Source: Shigella phage Sf14. Taken from it: a stretch of DNA of 64,000 nt. The stretch lies in sequence record MF327003, one strand, 5' to 3'. The translations under genes were made by a program, and so were the position numbers. Positions 4,360 through 64,000 of this stretch are shown piece by piece (the first letter of the stretch is position 1; each line of letters begins with the position of its first letter). The notes beneath the pieces were generated by a model. The model did no database searches. It saw only the letters and a list, made by a program, of their open reading frames with translations, and was not told the origin of the DNA.

Positions 4360-5712
4360 ATGTGGAATCCAATTGTTAATGTAGATATTACATTGAACAC
4401 AGCAGGAACTACAAGAGAAGGTTTTGGTTTACCATTATTCCTTGCTTCAACAGATAACTTTGAAGAAAGAATCCGTGGTTACACTTCATTAACAGAAGTA
4501 GCCGAAGACTTTGATGAAAGTACTGCTGCGTATAAAGCTGCAAAACAGCTATGGAGCCAAACTCCAAAAGTAACTCAACTGTATATTGGTAGAAGAACTA
4601 TGCAATATACTGTTTCTATTCCTGATACAGTGGCTGAAGGAAGTGAATATTCATTGACAGTTGCTATCGGTGGTGGTGTTTCTCAGCCATTCCAATACAC
4701 TGCAAAAGAAAATGACACAGCACTTATTGTCTTGAATGAGTTTAAATCACAGATTGAAGCAAGCCCAACAATTAAAGATGGTGTTAATGCTAGTGTAACA
4801 GGTACTGGTGCTTCTGCGACGATGATTATTACTAAAGCTGGTGATAATGACTTCGTAAAAGTAACGTCCATTACACCTACAACGTCTATTGCAGCAACAA
4901 CTGCTGACACGGCTTCCGCTGCTCTGGCATCCATTGAAACATATTCAACAGATTGGTACTTCATCTCAGCAGAAGACAGAACTCAACAGTTTGTCTTGGC
5001 AATGGCTTCAGAGATTCAGGCGCGTAAGAAGATTTTCTTCACAGCTAATGCTGACGTTAAGGCTCTGCAAGGCACTGATTTGACCTCTGCAACAGATGTT
5101 CCGGCACAGTTAGCTAAGAGCAAGTACACTCGTACAGTTTGCTTGTGGCATCACACAGCCGAGTTTGACTACCCAGAAATGGCTTACATCGCATATGGTG
5201 CCCCATATGATGCAGGCTCAATTGCTTGGGGTAACGCCCAATTAACTGGTGTTGCAGCATCTCTACAACCTGCTAACCAGAGACCACTGATAAGCATTCA
5301 GAAGTCAGCTTTAGACACTCGTAGCTGTAACTTCATTGACCTCGATGGTGGGGTTCCTGTAGTGCGCAGAGGTATCACTTCTGGTGGTGAATGGATTGAT
5401 ATTGTACGTGGTGTTGATTGGCTTGAATCTGATTTGAAAACATCTCTGAGAGACTTGCTAATTAATCAGAAGGGTGGTAAGATTACTTATGATGATACTG
5501 GTATTACCCGTATTCGTCAGGTCATTGAAACATCTCTTCAGCGAGCAGTTAACAGAAAATTTTTGTCAACTTACACCGTTACTGTTCCTAAAGCCTCACA
5601 AGTTGCATTGGCAGATAAGAAAGCACGTATCCTGAAAGACATTACCTTCCACGGTATTCTTGCAGGGGCTATCTTGGATGTTGACTTGAAAGGCACAGTG
5701 GCTTACGAATAA
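4360..5712 (+). CDS. tail sheath protein
   Basis: 450 aa ORF followed by small tube gene, chaperone-sized ORFs and tape measure; canonical contractile-tail order. Confidence 0.6.
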   Translation: MWNPIVNVDITLNTAGTTREGFGLPLFLASTDNFEERIRGYTSLTEVAEDFDESTAAYKAAKQLWSQTPKVTQLYIGRRTMQYTVSIPDTVAEGSEYSLTVAIGGGVSQPFQYTAKENDTALIVLNEFKSQIEASPTIKDGVNASVTGTGASATMIITKAGDNDFVKVTSITPTTSIAATTADTASAALASIETYSTDWYFISAEDRTQQFVLAMASEIQARKKIFFTANADVKALQGTDLTSATDVPAQLAKSKYTRTVCLWHHTAEFDYPEMAYIAYGAPYDAGSIAWGNAQLTGVAASLQPANQRPLISIQKSALDTRSCNFIDLDGGVPVVRRGITSGGEWIDIVRGVDWLESDLKTSLRDLLINQKGGKITYDDTGITRIRQVIETSLQRAVNRKFLSTYTVTVPKASQVALADKKARILKDITFHGILAGAILDVDLKGTVAYE

Positions 5713-5726
5713 AGGAGTAATTAGGA

Positions 5727-6173
5727 ATGGCTATGTATCAGCAATATTCCCCTAAAGATGTAGTTTGTAGCTGGAATGGCATTGCCATTGAAGGTTTTGC
5801 ACCAGACTCATTCTTGCGTCTTCAGAGAACTTCTCCACTTGTTACGCCAGTTGTAGGTGCAGGTGGTCAAGTAGCTCTGACAAGAAATGCAGACAAGACA
5901 GGTACGATTGAGATTGAGCTAATGCAGACTTCTCTATCAAACCAGATGCTTTCTGCAATTCAAGCTAAACAAGATGACATGGAACTTGAAGAAGATATCT
6001 CATCTAACTTTGTAATTTACGACCCATCTGGTTCAGTTCTGGCAACAGGTATTAATGCTTGGTTGCAAGAGCTTCCACAGATTGAATTAGGTCGTGACCA
6101 GAACTCGAAAACTTGGATTTTCGGTTGTGAGAAGTTAGACTACACTTCAACAATCCCTGCGTCAAGCGTTTAA
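5727..6173 (+). CDS. tail tube protein
   Basis: 148 aa ORF after sheath, AAAGGAG RBS, followed by intrinsic terminator. Confidence 0.55.
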   Translation: MAMYQQYSPKDVVCSWNGIAIEGFAPDSFLRLQRTSPLVTPVVGAGGQVALTRNADKTGTIEIELMQTSLSNQMLSAIQAKQDDMELEEDISSNFVIYDPSGSVLATGINAWLQELPQIELGRDQNSKTWIFGCEKLDYTSTIPASSV

Positions 6174-6887: not shown

Positions 6888-9123
6888 TGGCACAATATAC
6901 AGTTGATAGTTTTATTGTTGAACTTGGATTCAGTGAAAAGGTTATTAAGGGTTTGCAAAGAGTTGAGAAAATGGCTATGCAGTCTGCTCAACGTATCGAA
7001 CGCAATATCAATAAAGCCTTTGATGTGAAGCCTAATAGAAGTTCACAAGACGCTCTAAACAGACTTGTAAAAAACGCTCAGACTGCTTCAGGCAGAATCA
7101 ATAAATCCCTAAACAATGCTATGAATTTAGATTCACAAGGTGTAAAATCACTTCGTAGATTAGAAACACAGGGTAAGAAAACAGCCAAAGAAATTAATAA
7201 GGCTCTAAGACAAGCTATGAATGTTGAAGGTAAAGTCAATGTTCGTGGTGGAGTTGGTAGAGGCCGTGGTAATACTATCCCTCCGGTTGGAGGTGGTGGT
7301 TCACCTAGAGTTAGACCTGATATTGCTCAAAGACAAATGGAAAGAATGTTTAATAACAACTTCTATTCTGGTTTGACTCGTCGTCTTGAAACAATTGGTG
7401 GACAAGGTAACCAAATGGCTACTTCCTTCAGAGGAAGCTTACAAGGAATCTATAATAAGTACAAAGGTAGTGGTAAAGTTGGTGAGTATGAGATGGAAGT
7501 TAAGAAACTCATTGACACTACCAAACGTTGGGTTATTGCAGAAAATGCTAGACTTAAGGCAGTCAGAGAGTCAGCTTGGTTACAAGACAGAGCAAACTCT
7601 TCACTAAGACAGCTTGTAGGTGGTTTTGTTTCAGCGTATGCTATGCTGGAATTAGCTCAGAAGACTATTGATGCAGGTGTAAAGAGACAGTCTGCACAGT
7701 TAGCCTCAACAGCTATCTTTGGAGGGGATACACAGCAAGCGAGAATGTTCGCTGCTACGTTCTCTCACCAGATTGGTCAGAACTACACAGACACTATGAA
7801 GCAGTACTCAAACTTCGCTGCTGGTGCTCAACCAGAGTTAGGTTTTAAAGGGACTCAAGAGTTCTATAAGAATGCTGCTATGTTCTCACGTATTCGTGGT
7901 GCTTCTGATGAAGACTTGAAAGGTATCATGGTTGCTTTCCAGCAAATGGCATCTAAAGGTAAGATTCAGGCTGAAGAACTTCGTGGACAGTTAGGTGACC
8001 GTTTGGCAGGTGCTGTTCAGTTATTTGCTGATGCTATTGGTAAAACTCCACAAGAACTTGACAAGATGATGAAAGATGGTCAGCTTCTTGCAAAAGACGT
8101 TCTACCAAAAGTCTCAGAAAAAATGAGAGAGCTTGTTGAAGCAGCAGGTGGTATGAATGCAGTTTCTAAGCAGACAGCTACCTCTATGGGTCAAGCAAAG
8201 GCAATGTGGGATAACACCCTTGTAGCTTTGTTTAACAACTCTAGCGAAGGTATCTCACAACTCTCTAACTCAGTTGCAATGTTCTTGCAAGGTTCCCTTG
8301 GTACATCTGAAGCACTTGGTACAGGTATTGGTTACCTTTTAAAAGGTGCTAGTAACCTTCTAGACTTCGTGACAGATATCATGTACCGCATTTCTTCATT
8401 ATACTATACCTCAATGGGCTATTTCAAGGAATTAGATGCTAGTCAACAGAAACTAATCAAGGATTCTGCTGAGTTAGTTGCTACGTTCACCGCTATTGGT
8501 GTCTCAATTGCAGCTATTACAAAAGTCGCTAAAATCTTTGGTGGTACTGTAGCATTTGTCAAGAGTATCTTTGAAGAAGGTATCTTAGCTAAGATTGCAC
8601 AGAAGTTTGGATTAACTACAGCAGCAGAAACAGCAGCTACAACGGCTGGTGTATCAGCAACCAGAATGGCTCTTGGTGTAGGTGGTTCTGCATTAATGTT
8701 ATCTGGTTCAGTTGACAAGAATGCTGGAAAGAGATTTAACGAGGTTAACACACCTAATCCTTTCAATGAAGCTATCTCAGGAATCACTAATCCAAAACGT
8801 CCAATGTTCTTTGACCAGAATGGACAACTTCAGTTTGCACAATATACCACAGACACTTCTGGAAATATTCAGAGAGTTGATAATGGTTTGTCAAATTGGG
8901 ATATTATCATGAACAACCTGTCTGAGTCTCTAAATAACTTTGCAAACAAGTTTAACCAGACACCTATGATGATGACTCCTTCTGGACTACCATTGCAAAC
9001 TAAGCAGACGCTTAACGTTTCCTTTAATCTGGATGGTAAGCAGATTGCTACTAAGATGGTGGATATCACTGATAAGAGTCAGGAAGATATTCTGTTAAAC
9101 TCTAGCTACCCAGAGGATGAATA

Positions 9124-12302: not shown

Positions 12303-13771
12303 TGGCTGGATTAACAACTACAGGTTTACAAACAAAAAGATATCAAGAAATCTTGGATGATGTTAAAGCAAGTCTGTATAGAGATATCTCACCAAACCTT
12401 GATGTTTCTGAAGATAGCGAACTTGGGTTATTCTTAGCTTCTGTTTGCCGAGGTCTTGCAGACGTTCATGAAATCTTGTCAGAAATCTATGATGGTGGTA
12501 CTATTGACAAAGCTGAAGGATTCAGTTTAGATGATGTAACAGCTTTGAATGCTGTATACAGATATGTGGCACAAGCTACAAGAGGTCAAGCTGAGTTCAC
12601 TGGTAACTCTGGTGCTCCTGTACCAGCAACTACAAGATTAAGAAGCACAGCAGGTAACATCTTTTACCCTGTGTCAACTTTCACGCTGACTCCATCTTAC
12701 TGTGTAGAGGCAAACTTAGAAGTTAACTCTTTACGAACAGATGCAAACTATGTTATTATCATTGATAACATTGAGTATTCATATCAGCCGACTAGCTCTG
12801 ATACCATTACAACATTGCTACAGAAACTTGCAGATGCTATTAATGGTGGTATTATTGCAAAGGCTGAAGTTACTAATGATGGCTCAGTTCTAAGAATCTA
12901 TAAAGACACTGGAGATATCATTGCCAGAACTAACCCTATGGTTGTTACTGCAACGACATTCTTAACATTTACAAAGATTACTTCAATCAGTGACGTTGTA
13001 GCAGATGAAACTGGAGCTATCCAGACTCTGGCAGGAACCTTGATTGAGATTGAAACAACTGTAGATGGTCTTGATAGTGTCTTCAACAGATATGATTTGA
13101 CAACAGGTCGTGATGAGGAAACTGACACAGAACTGAGACAACGTTACTTAGAATCTCTGGCTGTTACCGGTGTAGGTACTCTGGATGCTATTGTAGCTGC
13201 TGTAAAGAGAGTTCAAGGTGTGTCTGACGCTTCTGGTGTAGAAAATGATACTGAGACAACAAACTCTGATGGTCTTCCTCCGAAGTCTTTTAAGATTGTT
13301 GTAGTTGGTGGTCAGAATGATAATATTGCACAGGCAATCTGGGACACGAAACCTGCTGGTATTCGCCCATATGGTGCAATCTTTGGGACTGCATATGACT
13401 TAGGCTCTCTCCCTCACGATGTTTACTTTAGTAGACCAATGCCTAAATACGTTTTTGTCAAGGTCACTTACTCTCTTTACGATGAAGAAACTCTTAACAT
13501 CCCTGAACAGGATATTCATGACAGAATTGTTCAAGGTATCAATACCTATGGTAGAACGTTGAAAGTTGGTAACGATGTAATCCCTAACAGAATTTATGGG
13601 CATATCTATGATGTGATTCAAGGTATTGAGATTAATGAGATTAAGGTTGCACTTTCAAACAACCAAGCAATTCCACCTGCTGATGAGCAGTACACCACTT
13701 CAAGAATTACTATTGATGGTGACCAGTACACTGTTTGGGAAAGCTCACAGTATACAATTACCAAGGAGTAA
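12302..13771 (+). CDS. baseplate J-like protein candidate
   Basis: 489 aa, largest baseplate ORF, synteny. Confidence 0.4.
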
Positions 13772-32956: not shown

Positions 32957-33209
32957 TAGTTATCTGAAGGAGGGTTTTGAACCCTTCTATTCAGAAGAAA
33001 GTAGAAAAAAATTTGTAAAAGAGTGCTTGACTAAGATAGAGCAGTTCGGTAAAGTACTCATCAACAAGGGACATGAAGTAAAGTTTGAACACTTATCAAA
33101 AGATAATGTTGAGCAATTTGCATTAGCGATTGATGGGTTATCTACAGTTTACATCTTTACCTTGACTAATAAACATTTTGAATATGAAATATATCGGAGA
33201 GATTCATGA
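32928..33209 (+). CDS. hypothetical protein
   Basis: 93 aa ORF. Confidence 0.3.
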   Translation: MMTVRSKLIDSYLKEGFEPFYSEESRKKFVKECLTKIEQFGKVLINKGHEVKFEHLSKDNVEQFALAIDGLSTVYIFTLTNKHFEYEIYRRDS

Positions 33210-58056: not shown

Positions 58057-58851
58057 ATGGGTATCGTAAAAATTATTAAAGGTGATATCTTTAAAGACTT
58101 TGATGGTAAGAAATTTGATATCATTGGTCACGGTTGTAACTGCATGAACTTGATGGGTGCAGGTATCGCAGCAACAATTGCCAAACGTTACCCAAAAGCT
58201 TATGAAACTGACGCTGAAGTTTATGCTACAGTAGGTGGTGAAAATCATAACCCTAAGCATCTAATGCTTGGTAACATCTCTGTAGCACGTTTTAAGCAGG
58301 GTCGAATTGCTAACCTTTACACTCAGGTTATCACTGGCAAAGATGCACGATACAACGCCTTAGAAGCAGCTTTACAGCGTCTTAACAACTACTGTAAAGT
58401 TAATCAACTTAAGAAAGTTGGGCTTCCGATGATTGGTGCAGGGATTGGTGGTCTTGATAGCATGGCTGTGCTGTCCATTATCAACCAGACTATGAAGGAT
58501 GTTGACGTTTATATGTATGTCTATGAAGATAAGATGTACAGTCAGTTGACTAGTCCTGTTACTGGTTGGGAGAACTTCAGTGAGCCTCAATACTTTGATG
58601 GTGTTGCTGTGGTAGGCAAGGATAAAGTTACCCTCAAGGTGAAGCGTAATGGCAAGGTACACACCAGTTACCCTCCGGTTGAGAAGTACAATCGAAGTAA
58701 CGCTCAAGTTACCCACCCGTTACAAGGCCACCACCACAGAGCGGTAACGTTTGGCGATGATGCAAGTGTATATATCAATGCGACTACAGAAGAGTTTGCA
58801 GAAGATTATATCACACATGAAAACGTAAACTATGTTGAAGCACGTAACTAA
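58057..58851 (+). CDS. macro domain (ADP-ribose binding/processing) protein
   Basis: IIKGDIF...DIIGHGCNCMNLMGAGIAATI resembles the macro-domain GDIT...NAAN...GGGVAGAI core. Confidence 0.5.
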   Translation: MGIVKIIKGDIFKDFDGKKFDIIGHGCNCMNLMGAGIAATIAKRYPKAYETDAEVYATVGGENHNPKHLMLGNISVARFKQGRIANLYTQVITGKDARYNALEAALQRLNNYCKVNQLKKVGLPMIGAGIGGLDSMAVLSIINQTMKDVDVYMYVYEDKMYSQLTSPVTGWENFSEPQYFDGVAVVGKDKVTLKVKRNGKVHTSYPPVEKYNRSNAQVTHPLQGHHHRAVTFGDDASVYINATTEEFAEDYITHENVNYVEARN

Positions 58852-58875
58852 TAAGTCACCTAGATAGACATAGAC

Positions 58876-58924
58876 AAGCCCTCCAAAGTTTGAGTTTTAA
58901 ATCTCAGGTAAGGAGGGCTTTTTC
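58876..58924 (+). terminator. putative terminator with long loop
   Basis: AAGCCCTCC ... GGAGGGCTT arms followed by TTT. Confidence 0.4.
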
Positions 58925-59104
58925 ATTTCAAATCTGTGCAGGTATAGTTGAGTAGAACTCTGGACAGATTTCTTTAACTGAACTCCAAAGGGAAATTTCA
59001 TTTTCAAAACGTGCAGGTCTAGACTCCAAAGAGCTTTTTCATTTTCAATCTGTGCAGATGCAGTTGGACTCCAAAGGGAAAATTCATTTTCAAATTGTGC
59101 AGGT
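58919..59104. repeat. degenerate tandem repeat array, 4 units of about 41-45 bp
   Basis: Units carry ACTCCAAAG (58982, 59023, 59068; CTCCAAAG also at 58881), TTCATTTTCAA and TGTGCAG(G/A)T; followed by C-rich tract 59121-59156. Confidence 0.7.
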
Positions 59105-59276
59105 AGGTAGCTGTAGGAAACCAGCCCCACCATCCCCTCTTACTCCCCTTCCTCCCAAAAGTCAAGCTAAAAATTTGTAGAGAACTGAAAAATAATTCTT
59201 GACGAGATTTCTGTTTTAGTGTATTCGCATACGTGCGTTCTATTCACGAAACATAAAATATTTTTAAAAAATTTTG

Positions 59277-59305
59277 TTGACTTCATAAATCCAGTCTTAT
59301 AGTAT
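59277..59305 (+). promoter_or_regulatory. early-type promoter TTGACT-17-TAGTAT (type 1 cassette)
   Basis: Followed by conserved leader TCAACGGG-hairpin-CAACAATCCTAAACTGGAGAATCT-A-rich-ATG. Confidence 0.55.
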
Positions 59306-59355
59306 TTGCATCAACGGGAAACATCCCAACAATCCTAAACTGGAGAATCTAAAAA

Positions 59356-59562
59356 ATGTTATATCAACGTGAGTTAATGATTGTTGACAACAACAAAACA
59401 AATAAACGTCGTTTCTATATGCTAATTTGTGATGTTTGGCAACGCATTTCAGAAAAGGATTTTGATAAATATGTTGATACGTCAATCAGGTCAGATTGTT
59501 ACTTGACAACTCATACAAGACAGTTTACAAGGCATACAGCAATTTATTATTACAACGTTTAA
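59356..59562 (+). CDS. early small protein
   Basis: 68 aa; conserved leader with GGAG RBS. Confidence 0.4.
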   Translation: MLYQRELMIVDNNKTNKRRFYMLICDVWQRISEKDFDKYVDTSIRSDCYLTTHTRQFTRHTAIYYYNV

Positions 59563-59573
59563 AAGGCTTGACA

Positions 59574-59735
59574 ATGATTAAAGAAAGCGATGTAATACAA
59601 TACAAAGATTTAGACGGATACCCAAAAATTGGTAAAGTCTTCTATCTCTATAAGTCTGCTATGGGTAATGATTGTATAGCCCTTACCAATGGCGACAAAA
59701 TAACCATGAAATATTTTATAAAAATTATTGCATAA
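59574..59735 (+). CDS. early small protein (53 aa)
   Basis: ATG with AAAAGG RBS; track ORF begins upstream at non-ATG. Confidence 0.3.
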   Translation: MIKESDVIQYKDLDGYPKIGKVFYLYKSAMGNDCIALTNGDKITMKYFIKIIA

Positions 59736-59740
59736 AGTGC

Positions 59741-59819
59741 TTTACATGGGGTTTAAAATCTAGTATCTTAAGCCCCAGATAAAGAGCTTTACAAACAATC
59801 CTAAACTGGAGAATCTAAA
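59741..59819 (+). promoter_or_regulatory. type 2 promoter/leader cassette (TTTACA-17-TATCTT with embedded hairpin, then conserved leader)
   Basis: TTTACATGGGGTTTAAAATCTAGTATCTTAAGCCCCAGATAAAGAGCTTTACAAACAATCCTAAACTGGAGAATCTAAAA; repeated at 4 other sites. Confidence 0.45.
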
Positions 59820-60116
59820 ATGTTTATTGCCGCAAACGTTAGAACTAAATTAAGCCAGCTATTAAGTAATATCCAATTCATTGAATCTATGCGCCGTACA
59901 TCTGAAGCCGTAGAGTGGTATCATGGAAAGATTAACAAAAAGGAAGTAATAATTTGTGTATGGAACTTTTGTAAAGAATACAAAAAACCATTGCTTCAGG
60001 TTGATATCTATGATAACACTAATAAGTCATCGATTAAGACCACTAGAGATATGGTTGATTCATATGAAATTAGTCACACTGGTAAACTATTCCACAAAGG
60101 TAAAAACAAATGTTAA
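59820..60116 (+). CDS. early small protein
   Basis: 98 aa behind type 2 cassette. Confidence 0.4.
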   Translation: MFIAANVRTKLSQLLSNIQFIESMRRTSEAVEWYHGKINKKEVIICVWNFCKEYKKPLLQVDIYDNTNKSSIKTTRDMVDSYEISHTGKLFHKGKNKC

Positions 60117-60457
60117 TCACATACGTTGCAATTTTTATCTCTATTGTGGCGCTCTATAAAGCCTTACAAGCGCACAGTATAGCTAATAAGGCACTTACAA
60201 GGGATTTAAAAATAAACCTTGTACGGGGCTTTTTAGAGCGTTTAAGCTTAGAACAATTGAAACGCTTAGAGATGAGCTTTCGATTCAAAGCAGAAACATA
60301 CCGGATTGATAACATCCTAGACGGTGATTTTAAATTAATCAGTGATTATGACATACTTCTTGAGTCAATTCAAGATATAAACCTGAAAGATTATTATATC
60401 GTGATAGCGCAAGAAATTAATAAAAAAGAGCTTGCAATGCAGAATCAAAACAAGTAA
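60110..60457 (+). CDS. early small membrane protein
   Basis: N-terminal TM helix (ITYVAIFISIVALY); 115 aa. Confidence 0.35.
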   Translation: MLITYVAIFISIVALYKALQAHSIANKALTRDLKINLVRGFLERLSLEQLKRLEMSFRFKAETYRIDNILDGDFKLISDYDILLESIQDINLKDYYIVIAQEINKKELAMQNQNK

Positions 60458-60460
60458 AGT
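60432..60460 (+). promoter_or_regulatory. early-type promoter TTGCAA-17-TAAAGT (type 1)
   Basis: Followed by ATTCATCAACGGGGCAAGATAGAAGCCCCAACAATCCTAAACTGGAGAATCTGAAAATG. Confidence 0.55.
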
Positions 60461-60516
60461 ATTCATCAACGGGGCAAGATAGAAGCCCCAACAATCCTAA
60501 ACTGGAGAATCTGAAA

Positions 60517-60789
60517 ATGTATACTACTAATGACGGTCGAACTTTGAACGTAACTTTAAAACACTATATAGACGGTGTATTAAACTTTGAAGAGTTAAGA
60601 GCAGAACAGCACCTATTAGATTGGCAAGTAGCAGGTTTACAAAAAACCGCCACAGGATATGGAAAGAAAATTCCTACATCTTGGAAAGTTCGATACCTTG
60701 GAAAGTTACGCAGAATTTATCAAGATGTTTATAGTAATAGCGGTGTAAGTTACATTATTGTTAGCGGTAAAAAATTGTATTTAGTCTAA
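60517..60789 (+). CDS. early small protein
   Basis: 90 aa behind type 1 cassette. Confidence 0.4.
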   Translation: MYTTNDGRTLNVTLKHYIDGVLNFEELRAEQHLLDWQVAGLQKTATGYGKKIPTSWKVRYLGKLRRIYQDVYSNSGVSYIIVSGKKLYLV

Positions 60790-60797
60790 TAAATTGC

Positions 60798-60879
60798 TTT
60801 ACATGGGGTTTATAGTTAGATAAGATAAGCCCCAGATAAAGAGATTTATCTAAAACTAACCTAAACTGGAGTATCAAAA
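60798..60879 (+). promoter_or_regulatory. type 2 promoter/leader cassette (variant)
   Basis: TTTACATGGGGTTTATAGTTAGATAAGATAAGCCCCAGATAAAGAG...CCTAAACTGGAGTATCAAAAATG. Confidence 0.4.
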
Positions 60880-61287
60880 ATGACTAATGCTAATCACAAA
60901 GAAGTTGCAATTTTGAAAGCACGTTTGACCATTAACCGCATCAACATTGTAACATCAGCAGCACCAGACGAAACTCTGCATAATATCATCGGTAAAATTC
61001 AGGGCGCAGTAGTAGACACAAAACAGCTTAAAGAATCCTTGCAAGATGTAGCAGCAGGGGCTATAATTGACGGTGCTCAATATGAGATGAAGGAAATGCT
61101 GTCAAAGTCAAAAGTAATGAATAAAGAACTTGACTTGAAAATGTTTCGATTTGCTGTTAAAGTGTGGCTATGTGTTGATTTTGATGCAAACTTTGCAATT
61201 GCTGATTTCTTTGCAACATGGTTACAGCGTAACTTACCGGTTGAAGTCTTCCGTGAAATCTGCGATGCAATTTATTCAGAGATTTGA
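60880..61287 (+). CDS. early protein
   Basis: 135 aa. Confidence 0.4.
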   Translation: MTNANHKEVAILKARLTINRINIVTSAAPDETLHNIIGKIQGAVVDTKQLKESLQDVAAGAIIDGAQYEMKEMLSKSKVMNKELDLKMFRFAVKVWLCVDFDANFAIADFFATWLQRNLPVEVFREICDAIYSEI

Positions 61288-61316
61288 TTGACATTGCAAA
61301 AGCATAGTAGTAGAGT
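61288..61316 (+). promoter_or_regulatory. early-type promoter TTGACA-17-TAGAGT (type 1)
   Basis: Consensus -35; followed by the same leader and hairpin as at 60461. Confidence 0.6.
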
Positions 61317-61372
61317 ACTCATCAACGGGGCAAGATAGAAGCCCCAACAATCCTAAACTGGAGAATCTGAAA

Positions 61373-61621
61373 ATGTTTAATATGTTGAATATCCCTGACA
61401 CTTGCCGACTCTTAACACAATTTGATAACCTTGGCAAGCCGTTTTTATATCATATGCCAGATAACACTGCAAAAACTTACAGTTACATTGTAAACCGTTT
61501 TACGGCTTATGGTTCAAAGTATGGCTATAATGTCAAGACTCAAAAAGTGACTTTGTTCACAAGTATTGAAGAGTTACCAACTGTTGCCGTTAAACTAATC
61601 TTTACAAAGAAAACTAAATAA
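61373..61621 (+). CDS. early small protein
   Basis: 82 aa. Confidence 0.4.
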   Translation: MFNMLNIPDTCRLLTQFDNLGKPFLYHMPDNTAKTYSYIVNRFTAYGSKYGYNVKTQKVTLFTSIEELPTVAVKLIFTKKTK

Positions 61622-61626
61622 AGTCC

Positions 61627-61705
61627 TTTACATGGGGTTTAAAAGCTAGTATCTTAAGCCCCAGATAAAGAGCTTTACCAACAATCCTAAACTGGAGAAT
61701 CTAAA
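61627..61705 (+). promoter_or_regulatory. type 2 promoter/leader cassette
   Basis: TTTACATGGGGTTTAAAAGCTAGTATCTTAAGCCCCAGATAAAGAGCTTTACCAACAATCCTAAACTGGAGAATCTAAAATG. Confidence 0.45.
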
Positions 61706-62263
61706 ATGAAATGCTTCCACGGTACTACACAAGAAAACTTTGTAAACCTTATTAATGGCGGTGATAAACCATCAGGAGTCTGGAATTGCTCTGATATGGA
61801 TGGATGTTTTTATGTCTACCCTGTTAGCAAGTTCTATGATGTAGAAAATCTGGATGACGAACAAATCATAGATGAAGGTATTAAAAACGCGCTTGATAGC
61901 GCAAGCATTACAGCAGCCTATCAAATGAAGTCACAAAAGCTTGTTATCTTGGAACTGGATATTCCAGAAGATGATTTACAAGATGACTGGAGCTGTGAGA
62001 ACATGAGCGACGTAGCAAGCTTTACAGAATATTTCGATAAAGAATGGATTAAAAAGGTTTACACAACTGAATTTAATGCTATGTATGCGCCTTTCTTTGT
62101 CCCTAACCTGAATAATAGGAACTTGGGTTATATACCAGATGAATTACGCAACATTGCGGCAATAGTCCAACGTAGTGATGAGATGAGCAATGTATATTGT
62201 GATATCTTTGACACAATGCAATTCAACGTAACAGAAACGGCTATAAACGACTTAACAGCATAA
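61706..62263 (+). CDS. early protein, unknown
   Basis: 185 aa, acidic. Confidence 0.4.
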   Translation: MKCFHGTTQENFVNLINGGDKPSGVWNCSDMDGCFYVYPVSKFYDVENLDDEQIIDEGIKNALDSASITAAYQMKSQKLVILELDIPEDDLQDDWSCENMSDVASFTEYFDKEWIKKVYTTEFNAMYAPFFVPNLNNRNLGYIPDELRNIAAIVQRSDEMSNVYCDIFDTMQFNVTETAINDLTA

Positions 62264-62326
62264 ACGATAGAATCATACCAGTTCACTAGAAAAGCCCCGC
62301 ATAGGGGCTTACAAGAGGCTTAAAAC

Positions 62327-62557
62327 ATGCTTACTACAATCTATCTTATTCTATCTATCTGCAATGGTTCACAGTGTGACTTTAAAGGTTTAGAAGAGTT
62401 TACAGGTAGCGAAAATAATGCTATTGTTGCTTGTCAGATAGCAAGGCAAGATTACCCTGCATCAGATGATATCCAATGTTACTATAAATCAGAAGATGAT
62501 TATGGCATTTACTTTGACAGTGTGAATGGTGATTATGAAATTCTTATAGAAAAGTAG
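62327..62557 (+). CDS. early small protein
   Basis: 76 aa; preceded by hairpin AAAGCCCC-GCATA-GGGGCTT and AGAGG RBS. Confidence 0.35.
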   Translation: MLTTIYLILSICNGSQCDFKGLEEFTGSENNAIVACQIARQDYPASDDIQCYYKSEDDYGIYFDSVNGDYEILIEK

Positions 62558-62586
62558 TTGACACTGAAAACGCAAACAAGTAAAGT
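62558..62586 (+). promoter_or_regulatory. early-type promoter TTGACA-17-TAAAGT (type 1)
   Basis: Followed by ATTCATCAACGGGAAGGAAACTTCCCC...CCTAAACTGGAGAATCAAAAATG. Confidence 0.6.
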
Positions 62587-62646
62587 ATTCATCAACGGGA
62601 AGGAAACTTCCCCACTAAACAAAATTCCTAAACTGGAGAATCAAAA

Positions 62647-62868
62647 ATGTTGCAAGTTCTTAACGTAAAAACCATTGATTTTAAATTCTCAAATGTTCGT
62701 CGTACCTATTTACAGCCATTTAATAACCCTGTTAGAATTCCCAACGATGACGCTAAAAAGTTGATTGATGAAATTCTAGCTAATGGCGGTTATCTGGCTA
62801 GTCATAAGCAGTATAATGATGAGGCTGGAAGCCTGATAAATGAGTTTACATATTATTACTACAAATAA
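62647..62868 (+). CDS. early small protein
   Basis: 73 aa. Confidence 0.4.
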   Translation: MLQVLNVKTIDFKFSNVRRTYLQPFNNPVRIPNDDAKKLIDEILANGGYLASHKQYNDEAGSLINEFTYYYYK

Positions 62869-62880
62869 CTAATAAAGTCC

Positions 62881-62959
62881 TTTACATGGGGTTTATAGTT
62901 AGATAAGATAAGCCCCAGATAAAGAGCTTTACCAACAATCCTAAACTGGAGAATCTAAA
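62881..62959 (+). promoter_or_regulatory. type 2 promoter/leader cassette
   Basis: Same element as at 60798 and 61627. Confidence 0.45.
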
Positions 62960-63157
62960 ATGTTATCACTGATGCAAAAACTTTCTACCTTGTGGTGTTT
63001 AAAAGGTGTAGAGTGTAACCTTAACATGGAAGGTTCAAAGATAGACCTAAAAATAGTATACAATGGAGAAATACTATTCTCACAGAATAGCAGTCATCCA
63101 CACTTCAAAGATAATGCAATTATGGCCGTGAATAATCTGATGGATAGAATTTATTAA
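62960..63157 (+). CDS. early small protein
   Basis: 65 aa. Confidence 0.35.
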   Translation: MLSLMQKLSTLWCLKGVECNLNMEGSKIDLKIVYNGEILFSQNSSHPHFKDNAIMAVNNLMDRIY

Positions 63158-63162
63158 AGTGC

Positions 63163-63242
63163 TTTACATGGGGTTTAAAAGCTAGTATCTTAAGCCCCAG
63201 ATAAAGAGCTTTACCAACAATCCTAAACTGGAGAATCTGAAA
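63163..63242 (+). promoter_or_regulatory. type 2 promoter/leader cassette
   Basis: TTTACATGGGGTTTAAAAGCTAGTATCTTAAGCCCCAGATAAAGAGCTTTACCAACAATCCTAAACTGGAGAATCTGAAAATG. Confidence 0.45.
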
Positions 63243-63584
63243 ATGGCCTATGTAACAATTATCACCGATAAAGAAAATTCGTCATGGTCTACCCAAGTTA
63301 ACGACAAAATGAAACCTATGCAGTGTCTCAAGTACTTTGAGCAATGGAACAGGGGAGAAGATGTAAGCCCCTTTCAAGTGATGCAGATTGTACATGTTGA
63401 CAATGAAGGGAATAAAACTACCCTTAACACTGAATACTATGCTACACGTTTCGAAACTCGCAAATCAGCTATGCAGGAGTTAAGAGAAAAGGGATATAGT
63501 CACATTGCCGCGCTCATTTGGTCTGATTTGCTTAAAAAACAGTCATTAACCTATGTTAAGCCAGAAAAAATCTTTATAAGCTAA
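63243..63584 (+). CDS. early protein, copy 1 of tandemly duplicated gene
   Basis: 113 aa; identical to product of 63659..64000. Confidence 0.45.
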   Translation: MAYVTIITDKENSSWSTQVNDKMKPMQCLKYFEQWNRGEDVSPFQVMQIVHVDNEGNKTTLNTEYYATRFETRKSAMQELREKGYSHIAALIWSDLLKKQSLTYVKPEKIFIS

Positions 63585-63658
63585 TCAACAACTTATAAAA
63601 ATCTTTTGAAAAACAGATAAAGAGCTTTACCAACAATCCTAAACTGGAGAATCTGAAA

Positions 63659-64000
63659 ATGGCCTATGTAACAATTATCACCGATAAAGAAAATTCGTCA
63701 TGGTCTACCCAAGTTAACGACAAAATGAAACCTATGCAGTGTCTCAAGTACTTTGAGCAATGGAACAGGGGAGAAGATGTAAGCCCCTTTCAAGTGATGC
63801 AGATTGTACATGTTGACAATGAAGGGAATAAAACTACCCTTAACACTGAATACTATGCTACACGTTTCGAAACTCGCAAATCAGCTATGCAGGAGTTAAG
63901 AGAAAAGGGATATAGTCACATTGCCGCGCTCATTTGGTCTGATTTGCTTAAAAAACAGTCATTAACCTATGTTAAGCCAGAAAAAATCTTTATAAGCTAA
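63659..64000 (+). CDS. early protein, copy 2 of tandemly duplicated gene
   Basis: Translation identical to 63243..63584; stop codon is the last 3 bases of the window. Confidence 0.45.
   Translation: MAYVTIITDKENSSWSTQVNDKMKPMQCLKYFEQWNRGEDVSPFQVMQIVHVDNEGNKTTLNTEYYATRFETRKSAMQELREKGYSHIAALIWSDLLKKQSLTYVKPEKIFIS

Follow-up and report, generated by a model that had tools for sequence, protein, structure and literature searches.

The window analysed here comprises 64,000 nt of Shigella phage Sf14 (MF327003), a Felix O1-like myovirus of the Ounavirinae, near Mooglevirus. From position 59277 to its end, the window holds an array of small ORFs interspersed with copies of a compact promoter-hairpin-leader cassette of two types, laid out as follows:

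59277-59355, plus strand: type-1 cassette a (-35 TTGACT 59277-59282, -10 TAGTAT 59300-59305, hairpin GGGAAACATCCC 59316-59327, 12-mer 59334-59345)
59356-59562, plus strand: ORF F3, 68 aa
59574-59735, plus strand: ORF F13, 53 aa, leaderless
59736-59819, plus strand: type-2 cassette a (hairpin 59736-59788, -35 TTTACA 59741-59746, -10 TATCTT 59764-59769, 12-mer 59800-59811)
59820-60116, plus strand: ORF F4, overlapping F5
60110-60457, plus strand: ORF F5, without its own leader, its 3' end holding the next promoter
60432-60516, plus strand: type-1 cassette b (-35 TTGCAA 60432-60437, -10 TAAAGT 60455-60460, hairpin 60471-60489, 12-mer 60496-60507)
60517-60789, plus strand: ORF F6, 90 aa
60790-60879, plus strand: type-2 cassette b (hairpin 60790-60848, -35 60798-60803, -10 TAAGAT 60821-60826, 12-mer 60860-60871)
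60880-61287, plus strand: ORF F7, 135 aa
61288-61372, plus strand: type-1 cassette c (-35 TTGACA 61288-61293, -10 TAGAGT 61311-61316, hairpin 61327-61345, 12-mer 61352-61363)
61373-61621, plus strand: ORF F10, 82 aa
61622-61705, plus strand: type-2 cassette c (hairpin 61622-61674, -35 61627-61632, -10 61650-61655, 12-mer 61686-61697)
61706-62263, plus strand: ORF F8, 185 aa
62327-62557, plus strand: ORF F9, 76 aa, leaderless
62558-62646, plus strand: type-1 cassette d (-35 TTGACA 62558-62563, -10 TAAAGT 62581-62586, hairpin GGGAAG-GAAA-CTTCCC 62597-62612, 12-mer 62627-62638)
62647-62868, plus strand: ORF F14, 73 aa
62869-62959, plus strand: type-2 cassette d (hairpin 62873-62931, -35 62881-62886, -10 62904-62909, 12-mer 62940-62951)
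62960-63157, plus strand: ORF F30, 65 aa
63158-63242, plus strand: type-2 cassette e (hairpin 63158-63210, -35 63163-63168, -10 63186-63191, 12-mer 63222-63233)
63243-63584, plus strand: ORF F1, 113 aa, with an exact second copy at 63659-64000
63614-64000, plus strand: exact duplicate of the cassette-e 3' half (12-mer 63638-63649) with the F1 copy, ending at the window edge

The 12-mer CCTAAACTGGAG is the almost invariant part of a leader of ~45 nt overall. The window contains ten matches with at most one mismatch (starting at 59334, 59800, 60496, 60860, 61352, 61686, 62627, 62940, 63222, and 63638), all on the plus strand and spanning 59334-63649, against a chance expectation of 0.35; none of 100 shuffles reached ten. 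At every copy in the window, an ORF ATG lies 7-10 nt 3' of the GGAG; across 185 distinct leader contexts, relatives included, this spacing is 6-10 nt, the 12-mer is exact in 163, and its information content is ~2 bits at 11 of the 12 positions and 1.5 at the seventh. Four copies stand behind a type-1 promoter and GC hairpin and five behind a type-2 promoter lying in a long hairpin; the tenth (63638) falls in a 416-nt stretch duplicated exactly in tandem at the window end and has neither promoter nor hairpin. An earlier, sequence-only reading of this DNA had claimed at least ten small ORFs, each with this leader and a promoter. The ten leaders are there, but they precede nine different ORFs and one exact duplicate, only nine belong to full cassettes, and no separate leader precedes the ORFs at 59574, 60110, and 62327. 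With these corrections, the basic picture of small ORFs each served by a predicted sigma-70-type promoter, a common leader, and a Shine-Dalgarno site is supported.

The type-1 promoters read TTGACT-17-TAGTAT (59277), TTGCAA-17-TAAAGT (60432), TTGACA-17-TAGAGT (61288), and TTGACA-17-TAAAGT (62558); the consensus-like promoter described previously is thus present in four copies, although that at 60432 is weaker than claimed. The latter sits within the 3' end of the preceding ORF, F5, whose stop codon falls in the -10 element, and an A/T-rich stretch (59249-59276) lies directly 5' of cassette a. Behind the promoter comes a 10-nt spacer ending in CATCAAC (TTGCATCAAC, ATTCATCAAC, or ACTCATCAAC), followed by a hairpin with a stem of 4-8 bp (GGGAAACATCCC, GGGGCAAGATAGAAGCCCC in two identical copies, and GGGAAGGAAACTTCCC) and then by AACAAUCC. 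Beginning ~3 nt past the predicted transcription start, this hairpin can form the 5' hairpin of its own transcript.

The type-2 promoter, TTTACA-17-TATCTT or TAAGAT with an embedded hairpin, was found as described, in five copies (-35 at 59741, 60798, 61627, 62881, and 63163). From the top down, its hairpin pairs over 10 bp, is interrupted by a 2x2 internal loop, pairs over another 5 bp, and after a 1x1 loop ends in 3-6 bp more (~21 bp or ~two helical turns, predicted dG -22 to -25 kcal/mol), with CCAACAAUCC 3' of the stem; cassette b carries a compensated variant, AAATT/GATTT, in the lowest stem. The structure takes in the upstream stop codon, spans both -35 and -10, and ends ~20 nt past the predicted start, and hence should form only in RNA reading through from upstream. 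The original description of "5' hairpins" can accordingly hold for type 1 but not for type 2, whose own predicted start lies too far 3'. Among 98 distinct type-2 cassettes, the hexamer 17 nt beyond TTTACA retains T1 in 91, A2 in 91, and T6 in 92, with positions 3-5 varying freely, a pattern that reads as the signature of a sigma-70 -10 element. Both cassette types proposed at the outset exist, but their alternation is not general: relatives show runs of 2,2,2,2 and 1,1,1, and strict alternation reflects the gene content of this particular genome.

Compensatory variation within the window, on which the earlier case for a selected RNA structure was built, is thin (three type-1 stems and only two type-2 loops) and becomes convincing only with relatives. 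The type-2 cassette gave 1485 matches in 286 phage records, ~five per genome, and multi-copy matches in IMG/VR are almost confined to contigs of ~73-90 kb. In 78 distinct copies, 95.8% of the cells of the type-2 stem are paired and five pairs have changed on both sides (101 cells, drawn, as are all the covariation counts, from homologous, sequence-exchanging copies and so not independent events). The covariation score is 0.197, compared with 0.077 for shuffles (0 of 500 as high) and no more than 0.037 for slid controls, and RNAalifold independently finds 19 of the 21 pairs. Pairing is kept along the full length of the stem, including its lowest part (columns 10-61: GC 54, UA 15), and GGUG..CACC replaces GGGG..CCCC in an Erwinia phage. 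For 26 distinct type-1 hairpins, stem position 4 is GC in 15, AU in 6, and CG in 3, and position 5 is AU in 12, CG in 5, and GC in 2; here the covariation score is 0.333 against 0.110 for shuffles, in an alignment anchored on the predicted outer pair of each hairpin, which favors the structure. The non-Watson-Crick positions are G·U almost exclusively on the sense strand (140 sense vs 12 antisense cells in type 2, 9 vs 1 in type 1), and this bias, together with the covariation of the stems, argues that the RNA structure is selected. The covariation analysis across related phages that the sequence-only reading had called for thus places both types above shuffles, and its proposal of selection at the RNA level is borne out. 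Rfam 15 covariance models, run on both strands of 58800-64000, returned nothing at E of 1 or below.

We consider it probable that the array is a hyperplastic early-gene region of autonomous modules, each composed of a cassette and one or two small ORFs. The cassette would unite a host sigma-70-type promoter, a GGGG...CCCC stem-loop under selection in the sense RNA, and the almost invariant leader CCTAAACTGGAG as the source of the Shine-Dalgarno GGAG. Host RNA polymerase would initiate at each cassette, so that each ORF could be expressed independently; the starts used here are predicted, the literature on Felix O1-like phages having yielded no mapped transcription start, RNA 3' end, or processing site. 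Lying past the stop codon of the preceding unit and ahead of the following ribosome site, the hairpin would act on RNA that comes in from that unit, both types serving as an intercistronic insulator (through attenuated read-through or a protected 3' end after processing), and the type-1 hairpin would additionally cap the 5' end of its own module's mRNA.

A different role for the type-2 hairpin, chiefly as a site of RNase III processing comparable to the R sites between T7 early genes, is conceivable but unlikely; a cut in the ~21-bp imperfect duplex of polycistronic read-through RNA would leave a protective 3' hairpin upstream and a defined 5' end downstream. The T7 sites are intercistronic imperfect hairpins of ~two helical turns with an internal loop, and the type-2 hairpins, also imperfect and also intercistronic between small early genes, match them in length and in having an internal loop, keep their pairing down to the lowest stem, and have no U-tract behind them. 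T7 sites, in which cleavage is proven, nevertheless contain no internal promoter, the early genes sharing three upstream promoters, whereas in Sf14 type 2 the promoter lies inside the hairpin. The type-1 stems are moreover too short for RNase III, such that only one cassette type is covered, and the tested analogues, the promoter-early stem-loops (PeSLs) of T4-like phages, acted as attenuators or terminators.

That the hairpins are ordinary rho-independent terminators isolating each unit we regard as improbable. They are GC-rich and lie directly behind stop codons, and PeSL stem-loops lowered downstream lacZ expression (PMC2839356), but the stems run into AACAAUCC (type 1) or CCAACAAUCC (type 2) rather than a U-run, a scan found no plus-strand terminator-like site between 58800 and 64000, and the canonical U-tract terminator of relatives occurs only at the array end (L002 ~12440-12470; t23 of Felix O1). 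The lack of a U-tract behind either hairpin, combined with the negative scan, makes classical intrinsic termination unlikely. We also doubt that the inverted repeats are DNA binding sites for a phage protein (an early-promoter repressor or a GGGG...CCCC recombinase), although the PeSL authors speculated on such a protein (PMC2839356), the outer GGG/CCC is invariant, and the repeats occupy typical operator positions, overlapping the -10 in type 2 and adjoining +1 in type 1. The sense-strand G·U excess (140 to 12 and 9 to 1) would be meaningless in double-stranded DNA, the inner stem varies on both sides with pairing kept, and loops of 4-12 nt on stems of 4-13 bp fit a fixed dimeric site poorly. 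It is highly improbable that the repeats are promoter and ribosome site only, kept near-identical by gene conversion: variants do move between positions in close relatives, implying frequent conversion, and many columns never vary and are uninformative on structure, but conversion makes neither compensatory pairs nor an excess of sense-strand G·U, Erwinia phages keep the architecture with another stem sequence and another leader, and the selective retention of T1, A2, and T6 in the -10 indicates purifying selection.

For the modular organization that we favor, the direct orientation of cassettes 50-115 bp long has a further consequence, in that they become substrates for homologous and microhomology recombination. 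Gene maps of relatives differ by whole ORF modules (differences in which deletion and insertion are not distinguishable), and the breakpoints fell inside cassettes in all five events examined between close relatives, a role in gene gain and loss that the sequence-only reading had omitted. Relative to Sf16 and ESh20, a deletion of 1.4 kb and three genes has its recombinant junction in type-2 cassette a, between F13 and F4: the left side of this cassette matches the F13|F15 cassette of ESh20/Sf16 and its right side the F12|F4 cassette, with the crossover in a ~50-nt segment that the two share. Crossovers within cassettes likewise account for a deletion in Sf16 and a gene absence in phiSUSP1, and a tandem duplication in Michonne and a stacked partial cassette in Mordin are microhomology joins between cassette elements. 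One gene may carry different cassette variants, even the other cassette type, in close relatives. By comparison, then, cassette recombination is shown to delete, duplicate, insert, and re-pair ORF modules, with their predicted expression signals left intact.

A cassette design combining promoter, stem-loop, and ribosome site has already been described in T4-like phages, and the Sf14 array is a new example. PeSLs are known from RB49, phi1, PST/T4, and nt-1/KVP40 (Arbiol et al, 2010, PMC2839356; Comeau et al, 2014, PMC4122927), where reporter fusions revealed promoter and attenuator/terminator activity and inverse PCR revealed circular excision products (Arbiol et al, 2010, PMC2839356). Both systems have a sigma-70-like promoter with an A/T-rich upstream region (on sequence evidence only here, of TTGACA/TTTACA-17-TAnnnT type in nine of nine cassettes), a polyG...polyC stem-loop with G-T pairs located between -35 and -10, over the -10, or 3' of it, a Shine-Dalgarno site and start codon, dense repeats between ORFans in a plastic region, and indel crossovers between close relatives that fall inside the elements. 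The likeness is one of anatomy and breakpoints. For PeSLs, both the activities and the recombination are known from experiment; our search of the Ounavirinae literature found no promoter, attenuator, or mini-circle experiments. PeSLs were described in T4-like myoviruses and the present elements belong to Ounavirinae with genomes of ~88 kb, a taxonomic limit rather than one of mechanism. The Sf14 array differs further in its two discrete cassette types, in a far longer type-2 hairpin that includes the preceding stop codon as well as the first 20 nt of the predicted transcript, and in its long leader with the near-constant 12-mer. Recombination at the cassettes matches the PeSL mechanism of T4-like phages, here in another subfamily. 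Promoter direct repeats of this kind had also been listed in print for Felix O1, and the Mordin genome announcement likened the leader, given there as a 26-bp repeat, CCAACAATCCTAAACTGGAGAATCTA, to the mycobacteriophage SAS; the sequence-only reading mentioned neither these reports nor the PeSL concept.

The start-associated and extended start-associated sequences (SAS/ESAS) of Cluster K mycobacteriophages (Pope et al, 2011, PMC3203893) are, like the Sf14 leader, short asymmetric GGAG-containing motifs in one orientation, placed a few bases 5' of start codons in genes unrelated to one another, and they are conserved between subgroups; CCTAAACTGGAG is confined to the plus strand, and the ORFs behind it fall in unrelated families. 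The SAS consensus, GGGATAGGAGCCC, is however unrelated to CCTAAACTGGAG, GGAG alone being common to the two, and SAS occur in temperate siphoviruses of mycobacterial hosts, scattered over the genome rather than arrayed and with no associated promoter. In Cluster K, about half of the SAS follow imperfect 17-bp inverted repeats whose spacer is variable (PMC3203893). Inverted repeats also lie 5' of nine of the ten Sf14 leaders (arms of 4-21 bp, enclosing or following the promoter), and the two sets are best described as analogous, not demonstrably homologous.

A further parallel is offered by the host-takeover module of Bacillus phage SPO1, which lies in the terminal redundancy. There, numerous small early genes without assigned function reportedly form a cluster in which every unit has its own strong host-type promoter and strong ribosome site (Stewart et al, 1998). 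The Sf14 array shares this clustering of small early genes and the provision of each unit with a host-type promoter and ribosome site; we know of no reiterated near-identical cassette, conserved hairpin, or documented cassette shuffling in the SPO1 module.

The earlier statement that none of the products has an assignable function stood up for the 12 distinct products. A Pfam scan of ten array products gave no matches, a PDB sequence search with three gave none below E = 0.17, and all 12 belong to PHROGs families of unknown function (F3 and F13 to phrog_5293 and phrog_14219, respectively). Host takeover, as proposed in the sequence-only reading, is a tentative label for the array, and the only timing data come from RT-PCR on the Felix O1 homologues: transcripts peak at 5 min for ORFs 16, 20, 21, and 22 and at 25 min for ORFs 17, 19, and 23, and the timing is thus mixed.

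The region and the start of the window match Felix O1-like myoviruses (Ounavirinae), the nearest being the Mooglevirus Shigella phages Sf16, ESh20 and Sf13 at 97–99.9% identity. In relatives, the array comes after rIIA/rIIB, polynucleotide kinase, spanins and a macro-domain protein, and ends at a canonical terminator with a non-coding gap of ~1.6 kb beyond; here it is truncated at 64000 by the end of the window, relatives having 1–4 further modules. The leader 12-mer CCTAAACTGGAG occurs ten times in the window (0.35 expected by chance), on the plus strand only and confined to 59334–63649, every copy having an ORF's ATG 7–10 nt beyond its GGAG. Repeat finding recovered two upstream cassette families, and together with the ten 12-mers this bears out the shared leader and two cassette types described by the sequence-only reading. 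A cassette upstream of each leader ORF, as that reading had it, is found for nine leaders but not for the tenth, which has neither promoter nor hairpin and belongs to an exact tandem duplication. The strict alternation of types is likewise present in the window but incidental: relatives with three extra genes run 1,2,2,2,2,1,2... and end 1,1,1.

Cassettes upstream of leaders in the window
Type 1, four cassettes: TTGACT, TTGCAA or TTGACA, 17 nt, then TAGTAT, TAAAGT or TAGAGT; 10-nt spacer ending CATCAAC; GC hairpin
Type 2, five cassettes: TTTACA, 17 nt, then TATCTT or TAAGAT

The comparison drew on cassettes of the window, of eleven annotated relatives and of contigs in IMG/VR, with a type-2 search pattern that allowed up to one mismatch in TTTACA. 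This hexamer is exact in 98 of 98 distinct type-2 cassettes collected, and in the hexamer 17 nt after it T1 is kept in 91, A2 in 91 and T6 in 92, positions 3–5 being free; the seven exceptions are compatible with 18-nt spacing. On this sequence evidence, the conservation is what a functional sigma-70 −10 element would show. For Felix O1-like phages, our literature search found neither RNA-seq nor mapped start sites. Placed 7 nt beyond the −10, as is customary, the predicted start is the A of CAACGGG in type 1, such that the hairpin would begin ~3 nt from the 5′ end, and the A after CCCC (AGAUAAAG...) in type 2.

The type-2 promoter is enclosed by its hairpin. The GGGGTTT...AAGCCCC element noted at first sight is present, but the folded structure is much larger: a 10-bp upper stem is followed by a 2x2 internal loop, a 5-bp stem in which the −35 region (CUUUA) pairs with UAAAG at +4 to +8, a 1x1 loop, and a lowest stem of 3–6 bp that takes in the upstream stop codon (UAAAGU with GCUUUA). 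Folding gives dG values of −22 to −25 kcal/mol (z −2.5 to −4.4), and RNAalifold on its own predicts 19 of the 21 pairs. Over 78 distinct cassettes, 95.8% of cells are paired, and both sides have changed at five pairs (101 cells, not independent events, the copies being related and exchanging sequence).

Pair types at three type-2 column pairs
29–42: AU 24, UA 19, CG 18, UG 10
27–44: UA 58, AU 20
10–61 (lowest stem): GC 54, UA 15

Type 2 scores 0.197 for covariation; shuffled alignments give 0.077, none of 500 attaining the observed value, and sliding the partners gives no more than 0.037. For type 1, all 28 distinct hairpin sequences fold, with stem position 4 occupied by GC 15, AU 6 and CG 3 and position 5 by AU 12, CG 5 and GC 2; the score is 0.333 versus 0.110 for shuffles, in an alignment anchored on each predicted outer pair and hence biased towards structure. 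With the same non-independence of cells, G·U makes up 140 of the non-Watson–Crick cells on the sense strand and 12 on the antisense strand for type 2, and 9 and 1, respectively, for type 1. Hairpin loops vary from 4 to 12 nt. Because covariation, sense-strand G·U bias and variable loops occur together, they argue for selection of the stems in the sense RNA, rather than as a protein site in duplex DNA, and the proposal that pairing is kept by compensatory change at the RNA level is upheld for both types.

The type-2 cassette has 1485 matches in 286 phage records, with hosts among Escherichia, Salmonella, Shigella, Citrobacter, Erwinia and Hafnia. Scanning IMG/VR with a 14-mer gave many isolated chance matches; type 2 is multi-copy almost only in contigs of ~73–90 kb, and cassettes were found only in Felix O1-like contigs of this size, bar two regex matches, each single-copy, in shorter contigs that are unrelated. 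In Erwinia phage Coenus, promoter-enclosing hairpins have GGUG...CACC in place of the GGGG...CCCC that is invariant in enterobacterial phages, a further compensated change. These Coenus cassettes (4990–5092, 5930–6029 and 8780–8881) have a 10–13-bp upper stem and the leader CCCTTATAAAGGAA; others in this phage combine TTGCAA with a GGGGTTA...TAACCCC hairpin.

Type-1 and type-2 hairpins are both situated after the upstream stop codon and before the next ribosome site, and from its position the type-2 hairpin would form only in RNA begun upstream. The most economical reading is that the hairpins act as intercistronic elements on read-through RNA, where they could attenuate transcription or leave a protected 3′ end. 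Type 1 would additionally affect its own transcript as a 5′-terminal stem-loop, a structure that protects E. coli mRNAs against 5′-end-dependent decay. A rival reading is an RNase III site, with which the size and internal loop of the type-2 duplex are compatible. Canonical terminators are rejected, as a U-tract is absent after type-1 and type-2 hairpins alike, and a scan of the region found no terminator-like sites on the plus strand; CsrA-type GGA-in-loop sites are rejected too, GGA being present in only some type-1 loops. An Rfam scan of 58800–64000 at E up to 1 matched no family.

Comparison with relatives shows the cassettes to be points of recombination. Gene maps of ten genomes differ by whole modules. 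The window is without three genes (381, 258 and 513 nt) found between the ORF families F13 and F4 in Sf16, ESh20 and 3HA14; the left side of its F13|F4 junction is identical to the F13|F15 cassette of these three phages, loop variant included, and the right side to their F12|F4 cassette, with the switch point inside a shared ~50 nt from GCCCCAGATAAAG to the ATG.

Rearrangements in relatives
Sf16: two-module deletion, crossover in a type-1 cassette
phiSUSP1: F30 absent, crossover in the 5′ half of a type-2 cassette
Michonne: one-module tandem duplication, join from leader-ATG to CTTTACA
Mordin: stacked partial cassette, join at an internal CTTTAC repeat

Close relatives also differ in the cassette that precedes a given gene, a re-pairing of genes with cassettes: the loop upstream of F7 is different in each of the window, ESh20 and Sf16, and F14 has type 1 upstream in the window and type 2 in Mordin and Michonne. 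The promoter of cassette b (60430–60460) lies inside the 3′ end of F5, with the stop codon TAA within its −10 TAAAGT; the unrelated ORF F26 of a relative (L002, 11035–11175) ends in an identical ...LAMQNQNK-stop tail, and C-terminal codons therefore travel with cassette recombination. At 63198–64000 there is an exact tandem duplication of a 416-nt unit, which gives ORF F1 twice, the second copy keeping just the 3′ half of its cassette. Its junction (TCTTTTGAAAAAC|AGATAAAGAGC, 1 nt of microhomology) is absent from 50,697 phage records and from IMG/VR, relatives being single-copy. Since the repeat lies right at the window's end, a recent duplication and an artefact of assembly or terminal overlap are both possible.

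Ten leader units make up the array, with 13 ORFs of which 12 are distinct, the ORFs at 59574, 60110 and 62327 having no leader of their own and riding behind another ORF. A 7-nt overlap between F4 and F5 (ATGTTAA, 60110–60116) suggests translational coupling inside one module. We rejected an origin of the repeats in a paralogous gene family, since the ORFs downstream of the leaders form separate families at E = 1e-5. Pfam gave no match for ten ORFs, the 12 distinct ORFs all belong to PHROGs families of unknown function, and PDB sequence searches with F8, F7 and F1 returned nothing below E = 0.17; the earlier view that no product has an assignable function therefore holds. RT-PCR in the Felix O1 genome paper (2010) put the peak for homologues of F12, F7, F1 and F16 at 5 min but for those of F4, F6 and F22 at 25 min. 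The gene set so marked out is the variable one of these phages and probably serves host interaction.

Compared over 185 distinct contexts, the 12-mer has an information content of ~2 bits at 11 of 12 positions and 1.5 at the seventh (163 exact copies; 20 of CCTAAATTGGAG), its flanks carry 0.6–1.7 bits, and the spacing from GGAG to ATG is 8 nt in most. Within it, GGAG is the sole part able to pair with 16S rRNA, yet the other eight bases, 5′ of GGAG, are just as fixed. Erwinia phages have a distinct yet related leader (CCTAAACAAGGAA or CCCTTATAAAGGAA), and in both the enterobacterial and Erwinia types a CC..GG hairpin of 3–4 bp is predicted over the Shine–Dalgarno site. Given these eight near-fixed bases, one speculative reading, which we consider rather unlikely, is that the 12-mer also serves as the site recognised by a dedicated factor of phage or host, for instance a RegA-like translational repressor or a RegB-like nuclease, by which all the early genes would be turned off, or on, in concert at the post-transcriptional level. 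If so, with the promoter-in-hairpin design, the array would amount to a platform into which accessory genes are plugged and expressed under common control.

The anatomy and evolutionary role described here match those of the promoter-early stem-loops (PeSLs) of T4-like phages (Arbiol et al, 2010, PMC2839356; Comeau et al, 2014, PMC4122927), which have experimental support. The feature is best described as a PeSL-like array of regulatory cassettes in Ounavirinae; the initial observation is confirmed, its interpretation partly supported. The Felix O1 genome paper listed 57-bp and 39-bp direct repeats uninterpreted and called the phage's promoters largely unidentified, and the Mordin announcement (2015) likened a 26-bp leader repeat before eight genes, also annotated in its GenBank record, to start-associated sequences (SAS). 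Our literature search found no paper connecting PeSLs with these repeats. What is new is the evidence for sense-RNA selection of the stems, how far the promoter-enclosing hairpin extends, and crossovers at nucleotide level, one of them in this genome. The PeSL idea—regulatory cassettes that double as recombination linkers, so that accessory genes are swapped and expression kept—is thereby extended beyond T4-like phages, which suggests a design shared by large virulent phages through convergent or ancient use. It accounts for the repeats published without interpretation in Felix O1 and Mordin, and ties them to the unexplained SAS/ESAS motifs of Cluster K mycobacteriophages (Pope et al, 2011, PMC3203893). 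This phage group is widely used in typing and biocontrol of Salmonella, Shigella and E. coli. The cassettes also offer ready-made insertion points and expression signals for engineering such phages.

Four direct repeats of ~40 nt (TTTCATTTTCAAAnnGTGCAGGT) at 58904–59104 lie 3′ of the macro-domain gene's terminator and overlap a minus-strand ORF annotated in relatives (e.g. Mordin_126); the first has a promoter-like TTTTCA-17-TATAGT site, and the rest resemble decayed copies. Between F8 and F9, the hairpin AAGCCCC-GCAT-AGGGGCTT (62292–62310) has its C-run first, a polarity opposite to that of the cassette hairpins, with no promoter and with a T-run after it on the minus strand only. Outside the array, 33027–33066 has a type-1-like promoter (TTGACT-17-TAAAGT-ACTCATCAAC) with the same sequence after the −10, positioned 3′ of a terminator-like hairpin and without the 12-mer leader.
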